A stretch of DNA of 64,000 nucleotides, from NCBI RefSeq assembly GCF_003334815.1, contig NZ_QOWO01000010.1; one strand, written 5' to 3'. This document shows, piece after piece, positions 16,929 to 22,366 of the stretch. How positions within the stretch are numbered: the stretch's first letter is position 1; each line of letters begins with the position of its first letter. The notes beneath the pieces are model-generated. The model saw nothing but the letters and a program-made list of their open reading frames with translations. It made no database searches and was not told the DNA's origin. The position numbers and the translations under genes were made by a program. Source of the stretch: Escherichia coli. Its GTDB lineage: Bacteria > Pseudomonadota > Gammaproteobacteria > Enterobacterales > Enterobacteriaceae.

Positions 16929-17810
16929 ATGGATCTGACCCAACTGGAGATGTTCAACGCGGTTGCCGAAGCTGGCAGCATAACCCAGGCTGCAGCAAAA
17001 GTGCATCGCGTGCCGTCGAATCTCACTACCCGTCTGCGCCAGCTGGAAACAGAACTGGGGGTTGATCTGTTTATTCGCGAGAATCAGCGTTTACGTCTCT
17101 CTCCTGCCGGGCATAACTTTTTACGCTATAGCCAACAAATTCTCGCGTTAGTGGATGAAGCGCGGAGCGTTGTCGCTGGCGATGAGCCGCAAGGTTTATT
17201 TTCTCTTGGTTCGCTGGAAAGCACCGCTGCAGTGCGCATTCCAGCCACGCTGGCGGAATTCAACCGTCGTTATCCCAAAATTCAGTTTTCACTTTCCACC
17301 GGCCCTTCCGGCACTATGCTGGATGGTGTACTGGAGGGAAAACTGAATGCGGCGTTTATTGATGGACCCATTAACCATACTGCCATCGACGGGATACCGG
17401 TATACCGCGAGGAACTGATGATCGTCACGCCACAAGGATATGCGCCAGTAACCCGTGCCAGTCAGGTTAATGGCAGTAACATTTATGCCTTCCGCGCCAA
17501 TTGTTCGTATCGTCGCCACTTCGAGAGCTGGTTTCATGCTGACGGTGCCGCTCCGGGAACTATCCATGAGATGGAGTCTTATCACGGAATGTTGGCCTGT
17601 GTGATCGCAGGAGCAGGCATTGCGCTTATTCCGCGCTCTATGCTGGAAAGTATGCCGGGGCATCACCAGGTTGAAGCGTGGCCGTTAGCTGAGCAATGGC
17701 GTTGGTTAACAACCTGGCTGGTCTGGCGTCGTGGTGCGAAAACACGTCCGCTCGAGGCATTTATTCAACTGCTGGATGTGCCTGACTCGGCAAGACAGGG
17801 ATATCAATGA
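16929..17810 (+). CDS. yneJ: LysR-type transcriptional regulator, divergent from sad
   Basis: 293-aa ORF with N-terminal HTH; divergent arrangement typical of LTTRs. Confidence 0.88.
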
Positions 17811-17887
17811 GCTATTTTTGATAGTTCTTGCGGTTAATATGCTCTATATAGTGATGTTCCGATGACTTATGACTATATGGGGCAAAT

Positions 17888-19003
17888 ATGGTTACGCCAG
17901 TAAGCATCAGCAATTACATATCTCTTCCTGATGATTTTCCCGTACGTAATATTGCACCGCAGGTAAAAGAAGTTTTAAAGGATTTTATTGATGCACTTAG
18001 TACAATAATATGTAATGAAGAGTGGCGCACGTCTTTAAACATCAACTCAGCCACAAAAAAGATATTTAATAACCTTGACAACTTATCATATATTCAGAGG
18101 ACTTCTTTTCGGGGTAACGACACGCTATACAATGAAAAGGTTCAGTTTAAACTCACTTATCCCGCCAGGAATGGAAGACACAAAGAAAATATTGAATTTC
18201 AGGTAGTAATAAATTTAAGCCCTATTTATTTAGATAATTTTCGCCATGATGGAGAAATTAATATTTTTTGCGCTCCCAACCCAAAGCCTGTCACTATGGG
18301 GCGCGTATTTCAGACCGGCGTCGAGCGTGTACTCTTTCTGTTTCTGAATGATTTTATTGAACAATTTCCAATGATCAACCCTGGTGTTCCCATCAAAAGA
18401 GCGCATACACCACATATTGAACCCCTGCCTTCGGATCACCATACCGCTGCAGATTACTTACGCCAGTTTGATTTGCTTGTCCTGAATTTTATCTCTCGCG
18501 GTAATTTTGTCATACTCCCCCGATTATGGAATAACTCTGAGGTTCACAGATGGTTCGTCAATAAAGATCCTAACTTGATCACCGCCATTCTCGACATAAC
18601 GGACAGCGAATTAAAAGAGGATTTGTTGCAAAGCCTGATGGATTCATTAGGTTCTAACAAACATGTACTACCCGAAGTCTGCATCTGCTTTTTATCCCTT
18701 TTAGCAGAACAAGAATCTCCTCATTTTCAGAACTTGTTTTTATTTTTCGCCAATATGTTATTGCACTATCACCAATTTATGAATCCCAATGAAAGTGATT
18801 TGAATGACGTGTTGATGCCAGCATCATTAAGTGATGATAAAATTATCAAACATATGGCGCGCAGGACCCTCAAACTGTTTGTAAAAAATGAAACACCGCC
18901 AAAAGTTACTCACGAAGACCTGGTGAAAAACAGGCCTCGCTCCCCTGTCAGACCACCTATACCCGCAACCGCCAAAACGCCAGACCTCCCTGAACGTCAT
19001 TAA
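17888..19003 (+). CDS. yneK: Uncharacterised protein YneK (AT-rich gene)
   Basis: 371-aa ORF; AT-rich relative to neighbours; no motif I recognise. Confidence 0.8.
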   Translation: MVTPVSISNYISLPDDFPVRNIAPQVKEVLKDFIDALSTIICNEEWRTSLNINSATKKIFNNLDNLSYIQRTSFRGNDTLYNEKVQFKLTYPARNGRHKENIEFQVVINLSPIYLDNFRHDGEINIFCAPNPKPVTMGRVFQTGVERVLFLFLNDFIEQFPMINPGVPIKRAHTPHIEPLPSDHHTAADYLRQFDLLVLNFISRGNFVILPRLWNNSEVHRWFVNKDPNLITAILDITDSELKEDLLQSLMDSLGSNKHVLPEVCICFLSLLAEQESPHFQNLFLFFANMLLHYHQFMNPNESDLNDVLMPASLSDDKIIKHMARRTLKLFVKNETPPKVTHEDLVKNRPRSPVRPPIPATAKTPDLPERH

Positions 19004-19152
19004 ACCGTGATGTTACCGACTCTCTGACGCGTGAAAGAATCAGCGTCAGAGAAACGGAAAACGCGATCCAGATCACAAATGCATTGTATTCACATCATTA
19101 ACCGTTTTAAGATCATTTCATCACTTTTTCGCAACTCACCCGATAATCTGTT

Positions 19153-20343
19153 ATGACAACAAACACTGTTTCCCGCAAAGTGGCGTGGCTACGGGTCGTT
19201 ACGCTGGCAGTCGCCGCCTTCATCTTCAACACCACCGAATTTGTCCCTGTTGGCCTGCTCTCTGACATTGCGCAAAGTTTTCACATGCAAACCGCTCAGG
19301 TCGGCATCATGTTGACCATTTACGCATGGGTAGTAGCGCTAATGTCATTGCCTTTTATGTTAATGACCAGTCAGGTTGAACGGCGCAAATTACTGATCTG
19401 CCTGTTTGTGGTGTTTATTGCCAGCCACGTACTGTCGTTTTTGTCGTGGAGCTTTACCGTTCTGGTGATCAGTCGCATTGGTGTGGCTTTTGCACATGCG
19501 ATTTTCTGGTCGATTACGGCGTCTCTGGCGATCCGTATGGCTCCGGCCGGGAAGCGAGCACAGGCATTGAGTTTAATTGCCACCGGTACAGCACTGGCGA
19601 TGGTCTTAGGTTTACCTCTCGGGCGCATTGTGGGCCAGTATTTCGGTTGGCGAATGACCTTCTTCGCGATTGGTATTGGGGCGCTTATCACCCTTTTGTG
19701 CCTGATTAAGTTACTTCCCTTACTGCCCAGTGAGCATTCCGGTTCACTGAAAAGCCTCCCGCTATTGTTCCGCCGCCCGGCATTGATGAGCATTTATTTG
19801 TTAACTGTGGTGGTTGTCACCGCCCATTACACGGCATACAGCTATATCGAGCCTTTTGTACAAAACATTGCGGGATTCAGCGCCAACTTTGCCACGGCAT
19901 TACTGTTATTACTCGGTGGTGCGGGCATTATTGGCAGCGTGATTTTCGGTAAACTGGGTAATCAGTATGCGTCTGCGTTGGTGAGTACGGCGATTGCGCT
20001 GTTGCTGGTGTGCCTGGCATTGCTGTTACCTGCGGCGAACAGTGAAATACACCTCGGGGTGCTGAGTATTTTCTGGGGGATCGCGATGATGATCATCGGG
20101 CTTGGTATGCAGGTTAAAGTGCTGGCGCTGGCACCAGATGCTACCGACGTCGCGATGGCGCTATTCTCCGGCATATTTAATATTGGAATCGGGGCGGGTG
20201 CGTTGGTAGGTAATCAGGTGAGTTTGCACTGGTCAATGTCGATGATTGGTTATGTGGGCGCGGTGCCTGCTTTTGCCGCGTTAATTTGGTCAATCATTAT
20301 ATTTCGCCGCTGGCCAGTGACACTCGAAGAACAGACGCAATAG
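19153..20343 (+). CDS. ydeA: MFS sugar efflux transporter
   Basis: 396-aa multi-TM ORF; recognised sequence. Confidence 0.88.
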
Positions 20344-22082: not shown

Positions 22083-22113
22083 TTGAAAACGTGACAACGT
22101 CACTGAGGCAATC

Positions 22114-22332
22114 ATGAAACCACTTTCATCCGCAATAGCAGCTGCGCTTATTCTCTTTTCCGCGCAGGGCGTTGCGGAACAAACCACGCAGCCAGTTGTT
22201 ACTTCTTGTGCCAATGTCGTGGTTGTTCCCCCATCGCAGGAACACCCACCGTTTGATTTAAATCACATGGGTACTGGCAGTTATAAGTCGGATGCGCTCG
22301 GCGTGCCCTATTATAATCAACACGCTATGTAG
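22114..22332 (+). CDS. marB: MarB periplasmic protein
   Basis: 72-aa ORF with signal peptide, third gene of marRAB. Confidence 0.9.
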   Translation: MKPLSSAIAAALILFSAQGVAEQTTQPVVTSCANVVVVPPSQEHPPFDLNHMGTGSYKSDALGVPYYNQHAM

Positions 22333-22341
22333 TTTGTTCTG

Positions 22342-22366
22342 GCCCCGACATCTCGGGGCTTATTAA
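22342..22366 (+). terminator. Hairpin GCCCCGA-CATC-TCGGGGC then TTATT after marB
   Basis: Inverted repeat read directly; approximate coordinates. Confidence 0.5.

Follow-up and report, generated by a model that had tools for sequence, protein, structure and literature searches.

yneK of Escherichia coli: an old, AT-rich orphan gene, probably foreign in origin and silenced by H-NS/StpA

The xenogeneic genes of Escherichia coli K-12 that are silenced by H-NS and StpA are AT-rich, absent from the orthologous site in relatives, low in expression in wild type, strongly de-repressed in an hns-stpA mutant, and faster to diverge than the DNA that flanks them. The gene yneK is like them in each of these respects. 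It occupies positions 17888..19003 (+ strand) of a 64,000-nucleotide stretch of E. coli DNA (RefSeq assembly GCF_003334815.1, contig NZ_QOWO01000010.1; the whole of this stretch is referred to here as the window). The explanation that we favor, and hold to be probable, is that yneK is a foreign protein-coding gene that entered once on a ~1.28-kb segment, is still ~60% AT, and is kept silent by H-NS/StpA. What sets it apart from the usual H-NS-silenced islands is that it is a single gene-sized insert of 1.28 kb without mobility genes or flanking repeats, and that its silencing is known from de-repression.

Two other comparisons are useful. Like the ORFans of the E. coli 'y-ome', yneK lacks a Pfam domain, homologues beyond the genus and an experimentally established function, is low in G+C and evolves fast. 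Unlike typical ORFans, its coding constraint is demonstrable (with a ratio of non-synonymous to synonymous divergence, dN/dS, of ~0.15) and it is older than the species, having an orthologue of 68% amino-acid identity at the same position in E. albertii. yneK also resembles the loci of the attrition-prone second type III secretion system of E. coli (ETT2) in being an ancestral low-GC acquisition that is intact in some lineages only, deleted in B2 (strain CFT073 was the one tested) and afflicted with varied point lesions elsewhere. On the other hand, neither its sequence nor its position links it to ETT2 or to any secretion system, and a functional tie is speculative. In sum, yneK can be thought of as an ordinary H-NS-silenced xenogeneic orphan, an instance of a familiar phenomenon that calls for no new mechanism. 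The gene, its missing annotation, its narrow distribution and its de-repression in published data were already on record; the boundaries of the insert, the argument for a single event, the estimates of selection and the catalogue of lesions are added here.

An AT-rich insert in place of the yneJ terminus

The open reading frame (ORF) at 17888..19003 runs from ATG to stop, specifies 371 amino acids, and is the sole ORF of at least 80 amino acids on either strand of this interval. By sequence it is yneK (b1527) of E. coli K-12, a known gene. It matches the NCBIfam equivalog NF033404 'YneK' from end to end (residues 1-371 on profile positions 1-371; 813.7 bits against a curated cut-off of 40 bits; E = 1.7e-245), RefSeq names it 'putative protein YneK', and a 1.5-kb query around it is 100% identical to MG1655-derived genomes.

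An original prediction, made by reading the window, had singled out this ORF as conspicuously AT-rich and placed it between a LysR regulator and an exporter of the major facilitator superfamily (MFS). Both observations are sound. The GC content of yneK is 0.398, as compared with 0.494 for the window and 0.51-0.535 for neighboring genes, and only 0.9% of 1116-bp windows lie lower (z = -3.2). The prediction had also proposed that GC and codon adaptation be computed against the surroundings. Among 44 non-overlapping ORFs of at least 200 amino acids in the window (with the codon index calculated leave-one-out), yneK has the lowest GC (z = -4.6; the others are at ~51%), the lowest value of an index resembling the codon adaptation index (0.60 vs 0.72; z = -3.2) and the highest fraction of rare codons (8.4% vs 3.8%). 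GC is depleted at codon positions 1, 2 and 3 alike. The left neighbor is the LysR-type regulator gene yneJ, also named ptrR (16929..17810), and the right neighbor is the MFS exporter gene ydeA (19153..20343).

The AT-rich segment is larger than the gene. Up to position 17776, K-12 can be aligned with the yneJ of genomes that lack the insert (other Escherichia lineages, Salmonella and Citrobacter), and similarity to the ancestral arrangement returns at ~19055 (CGGAAAACGCGATCCAGATCACAA, in the conserved block upstream of ydeA). Across the interval delimited in this way by outgroup alignment and by its drop in GC (~17777..19054, ~1.28 kb, to which no strand is assigned), GC falls to 0.35-0.42. 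The insert stands in place of the final ~8 codons (~22 nt) of ancestral yneJ, and provides a substitute 3' end (17777..17810, + strand, delimited by tblastn and alignments) that encodes the 10 C-terminal residues of YneJ. When K-12 YneJ is used as a tblastn query, its residues 1-293 are matched only in E. coli and E. albertii; in all insert-free genomes the match is confined to 1-282/292, and mostly to 1-282/285. The rest of the insert is made up of a 77-nt leader, yneK itself and a hairpin 3' of it. Both junctions are identical in K-12, in L087 (which stands for a lineage with an 84%-identical allele) and in E. albertii (L012), and such common junctions imply that the insertion was one event.

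Scanning one genome per species for YneJ yields 80 syntenic Enterobacteriaceae loci, on each of which Sad, YneJ, YneK, YdeA, MarC and MarR were mapped. YneK is found among them only in E. coli and E. albertii (at 67-68% amino-acid identity). The yneJ-ydeA gap is 108-321 bp in Salmonella enterica subsp. diarizonae/arizonae, Trabulsiella, E. whittamii and two more Escherichia lineages, as it is in most Citrobacter loci for which ydeA was recovered. These empty sites are scar-free, in the sense that a different short yneJ 3' end leads straight into the conserved ydeA upstream block; judged by this arrangement, the insert-free junctions are not deletion scars. In Enterobacter, Klebsiella, Kosakonia, Kluyvera and Raoultella the yneJ-ydeA junction holds unrelated genes of normal GC (for L-lactate dehydrogenase, a PhzF-family isomerase and a GNAT acetyltransferase). 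The suggestion in the original prediction that the AT-richness of yneK marks horizontally acquired DNA is thus supported by the absence of the insert from the orthologous, scar-free junction of relatives in this comparison of 80 loci.

Certain individual loci deserve comment. The representative of E. coli in the 80-locus scan is a K-12-identical contig (L007, SMXE01000224.1) that is filed under a metagenome-assembled genome ('MAG: Caldithrix sp. isolate CR04bin15'). It carries sad-yneJ-yneK-ydeA-marC-marR at 99-100% amino-acid identity to K-12, and is almost certainly E. coli contamination of that bin. A locus labelled Chryseobacterium (L045) is likewise of Enterobacteriaceae type. In Escherichia sp. 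MOD1-EC7003 (L008, ~5850-6000), an E. coli-type left junction (GTGCCTGACT) is followed by ~55 bp of unrelated sequence and then by a well-preserved ancestral yneJ tail (ACACAGTAGTTGGTACAACATGAAG; p < 0.001 vs shuffles). This locus could have arisen from the insert by deletion, or else by recombination.

Silencing, leader and 3' hairpin

The RNA-seq data of Srinivasan et al. (PMC4288151) bear directly on the silencing of yneK. (The values that follow are from the edgeR analysis in sheet 'hs-wt' of supplementary file 3, in which a negative sign signifies lower expression in wild type.) The logFC in the comparison with the hns-stpA mutant is -5.65 (P = 1.3e-67) for b1527 (yneK), -2.12 (P = 4.5e-13) for b1526 (yneJ), +0.79 (P = 8.6e-4) for b1525 (sad) and +0.47 for b1528 (ydeA), the last not significant (P = 0.06). 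yneK is therefore ~50-fold de-repressed in the double mutant, with yneJ 4-fold de-repressed and ydeA not at all, and the effect is local to the insert. Expression of yneK in wild type is very low in the same data. That yneK should be H-NS-silenced had been part of the original prediction, and the published de-repression agrees with it. Direct binding of H-NS at yneK is inferred from its AT composition and from the hns-stpA response; a scan of the gene for the H-NS motif returns 8 loose matches, as against ~3.9 expected (~2-fold), an excess that mostly reflects AT-richness.

The leader, which is also the yneJ-yneK spacer (17811..17887, + strand, 77 nt), comprises two highly conserved blocks and a 13-bp stem, in which 17840-17852 pairs with 17872-17884, so that the GGGG Shine-Dalgarno sequence at 17879-17882 is taken up in pairing. 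Its predicted RNA fold has a minimum free energy of -26 kcal/mol (z = -2.4 vs shuffles). All three lineages retain this stem, E. albertii with a single mismatch and a single G-U pair, and it shows no true covariation. The + strand of the 17811..17887 spacer has no canonical sigma-70 promoter. Peaks of RpoH holoenzyme and of NtrC have been placed on it in vitro by genomic systematic evolution of ligands by exponential enrichment (gSELEX; PMC5493296, PMC8743547).

The hairpin 3' of yneK (19021..19052, + strand; inverted repeat I3) starts 18 nt past the stop codon and has a 9-bp stem (TCTCTGACG/CGTCAGAGA) but no T-tract. Its stem is invariant and its loop variable in K-12, L087 and E. albertii, again without covariation. 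A terminator scan called no intrinsic terminator, this hairpin included. The leader stem and the 3' hairpin are both kept though the coding sequence differs by 15-26% between the three lineages; a regulatory role for them is only suggested by this conservation. A match to mir-471 in Rfam lies far below threshold and is not credible, and Rfam offers nothing else that is.

Age, coding constraint and loss

Synonymous divergence (dS) from K-12 at the yneJ-ydeA locus is 0.2 for L087, 0.66-0.79 for the lineages L009 and L010, and ~1.0 for E. albertii. The dS of yneK between E. coli and E. albertii is 1.17, and that of its flanks is 0.5-1.2. That yneK does not fall below its flanks argues against a recent transfer between the species. 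The orthologues of yneK are equally AT-rich (GC 0.36-0.38), and amelioration of the gene has therefore not taken place. By these measures yneK was acquired long ago, no later than the divergence of E. coli and E. albertii at this locus.

The comparison of K-12 17888-19003 with L087:179-1294 gives a dS of 0.58 for yneK, which is ~2.8 times the value for adjacent ydeA (0.205). Either mutation or diversification is faster in silenced AT-rich DNA, or the yneK alleles are older than their flanks; faster diversification of H-NS-bound DNA has been proposed (PMC4720273). There are 21 'E. coli' records whose best match to the yneK-region query is only 80-90% identical, and these may correspond to the L087-like class of 84%-identical alleles. 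A further locus filed as 'E. coli' (strain SCPM-O-B-8794; L011, NZ_JAATUR010000028.1, 5001-7158) is a mosaic relative to K-12, with a dS of 0.80 for yneJ, resembling that of divergent Escherichia lineages, and of 0.24 for ydeA. A recombination breakpoint therefore lies exactly at its yneJ/ydeA junction, the place of the yneK insertion.

The substitution pattern is that of a coding sequence. The dN/dS of yneK is 0.148-0.172 in all three inter-lineage comparisons, with 0 indels over 371 codons. Among nine intact E. coli alleles (those of eight sampled genomes and K-12), dN/dS is 0.06-0.32 and the segregating sites are distributed 13/13/41 by codon position. Constraint does not mean slow change: at a dN of 0.19, as compared with 0.006-0.046 for the neighbors, the amino-acid divergence of YneK is ~4-30 times theirs. 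These patterns mark yneK as a real protein-coding gene under purifying selection, yet a dispensable one.

Its dispensability is apparent from the range of ways in which it is broken. The survey of presence and absence for which the original prediction had called finds yneK intact in 9 of 20 evenly spaced E. coli genomes. The remaining 11 are accounted for by an IS1 insertion, a nonsense codon (codon 263, GAA -> TAA, in an O157:H7 strain), a shared frameshift in four alleles, a partial copy, an internal deletion in three genomes and, in one, a deletion that reaches into ydeA. The shared frameshift is a -1 event within a T6 homopolymer (18264..18269, + strand, identified by allele alignment), where loss of one T at nt 377 of the coding sequence affects 4 of the 13 sampled full-length E. 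coli alleles (strains 89-3156, N273, STEC367 and L3_E36_ETEC; RefSeq flags them 'frameshifted'). Two of these four carry further frameshifts. A single internal deletion allele, with the same junction throughout, is present in 1116 of 5426 complete E. coli genomes (21%), including the B2 reference strain CFT073; it leaves only the first ~85 and the last ~30 nt of the yneK coding sequence. In entries of Shigella sonnei a truncated form is dominant. Taken together, these alleles show yneK to be in course of loss in about half of E. coli.

Larger deletions also occur. Strain CUVET21-PYO5 (L002, NZ_CP116948.1, 4111-5037) has lost all of yneK together with the 5' end of ydeA, which is left as a pseudogene directly after ptrR. 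Butanol-tolerant strains evolved in the laboratory delete yneK-ydeA-marC (bioRxiv 10.1101/143792), and the role of these deletions in butanol tolerance was attributed to marC.

Two features at other places in the window may be recorded here. GC over 1116 bp falls below 0.42 elsewhere only at 1-250 and at ~25700-26100; the second of these stretches is the 5' end and upstream region of an ORF at 25085-25975 (- strand), which is annotated dgcZ in the syntenic region of CFT073. Between marB and eamA, CFT073 has an island (L088:6170-12346) that is missing from the K-12 spacer at ~22100-22360. It specifies a 6-phospho-beta-glucosidase, a carbohydrate porin, the IIA, IIB and IIC components of a phosphotransferase system and a GntR regulator. 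At least the first genes of this island (those of the glucosidase and a LamB-type porin) are also present in the E. albertii-like loci L003-L006 (L003:10539-13143), up to the sequence end.

The YneK protein and competing explanations

A word-indexed search of 5.8 billion proteins for YneK gives 22 matches, all of those with a named source coming from Escherichia or Shigella. An exhaustive hmmsearch of 1.84 billion cluster representatives gives 48, all of them fragments (35-307 amino acids); the weak ones that were inspected are frameshifted or error-ridden pieces of E. coli yneK. The plasmid records that match are in fact chromosomes of 4.8-4.9 Mb under a wrong label, or pieces of chromosome with a 34-residue remnant. 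A published BLASTp survey of GTDB agrees that the distribution of yneK is narrow (PMC12757027). At the sensitivity of profile hidden Markov models, YneK is thus a taxonomically restricted orphan with homologues confined to Escherichia and Shigella. (The 'yneK' of Bacillus subtilis that turns up in literature searches is an unrelated gene.)

Nor do collections of known families offer a counterpart. No PADLOC-DB 2.0 defense family matches at E <= 1, the PDB has no significant match by sequence or by profile, and nothing in Pfam is significant for the full-length protein (DUF1140 has an i-Evalue of 0.34, and DUF2589 does not appear). AFDB has a 186-residue fragment (A0A8T5ZLA4; 98% identity to YneK) under the name 'DUF2589 domain-containing protein'; this label looks spurious, because the Pfam scan of the full-length protein is without DUF2589. 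Structure prediction does not extend the reach of these searches. AlphaFold2 models have a mean predicted local distance difference test score (pLDDT) of 46.5 at full length and 46.3 for residues 140-335, the best-conserved part, and at such scores the models are too poor to rely on. Foldseek against AFDB50 finds only YneK-family entries (template modelling (TM) scores of 0.14-0.41), and noise at TM <= 0.21. The original prediction, which recognized no motif in the protein and regarded its function as unknown, is borne out by sequence, profile and structure searches alike; as to its own tests, composition does differ from that of the flanks, and no function is assignable by homology.

Some properties can be read from the protein nevertheless. 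YneK (42.8 kDa, pI 6.4) has no signal peptide, no transmembrane segment and no hydrophobic stretch of membrane-helix length, and is probably soluble and cytoplasmic. The low-confidence models suggest an N-terminal region of helix and beta-sheet (~24-110), then a mainly helical C-terminal half (~146-335), and last a tail, rich in proline, that is probably disordered. Conservation peaks at residues 151-210 and 241-270 and is lowest over the tail as a whole, where the residues of the RPRSPV..P..P...KTP...RH pattern are nonetheless invariant. That YneK acts by binding partners, perhaps as an adaptor, rather than by catalysis is our leading conjecture about its function, though one of low confidence.

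No paper assigning a function to yneK was found in the literature. The gene appears in a published table of ACA codons, a screen for host factors of CRISPR-associated transposons (CAST) lists it as a match that was not validated (PMC12757027), and a genome-wide association study (GWAS) of adherence at the bovine recto-anal junction had it among the top three genes before correction, with P = 1 after correction.

Several observations weigh against the account of yneK as a foreign gene gained once and silenced in place. Neither a donor nor a mobility gene has been found for the insert, nor a terminal repeat or an att-like duplication. L009 and L010, which are insert-free, branch between E. coli and E. 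albertii, a distribution that does not fit single gain and vertical descent alone and therefore requires either an early polymorphism sorted among lineages or exchange of alleles by homologous recombination. The de-repression of yneK could, in principle, be indirect rather than a consequence of H-NS occupancy. Doubt of another kind attaches to present function. It is possible, if unlikely, that yneK is a decaying relic, a passenger made cost-free by silencing and constrained only in the past; its very low wild-type expression, the want of a validated phenotype (with the CAST match unconfirmed and the adherence association lost on correction), an ORF intact in just 9 of the 20 evenly spaced genomes, lesions of no fewer than six independent kinds and the second frameshifts of T6-frameshift lineages all lean that way. 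A neutral 60%-AT ORF, however, would not stay open over dS > 1, and yneK has gone without an indel in 371 codons, at a dN/dS of 0.15-0.17 and a dS of 0.6-1.3, in three lineages, while its intact E. coli alleles still display low dN/dS and the 13/13/41 pattern. Quite unlikely is the notion that yneK is the one cargo gene left from an integrative element or prophage that had the yneJ 3' end as its target and has since degraded. Such elements often supply a substitute 3' end for the gene that they interrupt, as this insert does, and many phage accessory genes are AT-rich orphans. But a candidate att-like duplicate of the ancestral yneJ tail in the right flank of yneK had to be rejected (p ~0.86 in a shuffle-tested local alignment), repetition between the left and right junctions does not rise above shuffles (p ~0.37), terminal inverted repeats are absent, the 1.28 kb contains no ORF of at least 80 amino acids besides yneK and no transposase or integrase remnant, tblastn against 50,697 phage records finds no yneK, and PHROG has no significant match (best E-value 0.06).

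An origin within the chromosome, whether as an old native gene or by birth de novo in place, with the AT-richness due to local mutation bias or selection, would account for the failure to find a donor or a homologue outside Escherichia, for the lack of flanking mobility genes or repeats, and for residence at the locus since at least the divergence of E. coli and E. albertii. It is highly improbable, since orthologous junctions, which span 108-321 bp and in which the yneJ 3' end is intact though different, leave no room for a precursor, the 1.28 kb arrives as a block that replaces even the yneJ terminus, and other genera have unrelated metabolic genes of normal GC there. It is just as hard to credit that YneK is secreted to interact with the host, for instance as a type III substrate of ETT2 or of the locus of enterocyte effacement (LEE). 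A GC of 36-40% is typical of virulence islands in E. coli, and yneK has both such a composition and a distribution over E. coli and E. albertii; residues 2-25 are 54% S/T/I/N/P, which ranks second of the 44 ORFs in a crude secretion-composition index, and no acidic residue precedes position 15; the conserved proline-rich tail has SP/TP sites; and there is the uncorrected GWAS rank. Against this, the index is not validated as a predictor and the GWAS association has vanished on correction; no type III secretion, chaperone or effector genes lie near yneK, whose neighbors in every lineage serve metabolism, regulation or transport; the K-12 allele is intact and constrained, and K-12 is without a working type III system; and the sampled strain with the nonsense codon is O157:H7, which carries the LEE and most of ETT2. 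A bolder idea is that YneK founds a fold and function new to the databases, as a niche-specific factor (secreted or host-interacting, for instance, or a tail-dependent regulator) that is made only where conditions in the animal gut relieve H-NS silencing; its losses in B2, O157:H7 and Shigella would then be adaptive shedding and not neutral decay. We regard this as very unlikely.

On the favored explanation, that of a silenced foreign gene, a ~1.28-kb segment would have landed once in the last yneJ codons of an Escherichia chromosome. H-NS/StpA filaments would nucleate on the AT-rich body of yneK and block its transcription in laboratory-grown K-12, and the leader stem, by pairing with the ribosome-binding site, may restrain translation as well. 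Expression would be limited to some niche in which silencing is lifted, and the benefit of YneK would be conditional, for which reason many lineages could have lost the gene at no visible cost.

yneK thus offers a clean worked example of an old single-gene foreign insert that is unameliorated, ~50-fold silenced and still constrained at the level of its protein, and that has been lost independently in major pathogenic lineages (B2, O157:H7 and Shigella sonnei). It can serve as a small model of how silenced orphans persist and decay, and for the question of whether silencing speeds sequence diversification. Among the genes of the 'y-ome', it is a target that lies beyond the reach of homology and of current structure prediction, and that needs experiments.

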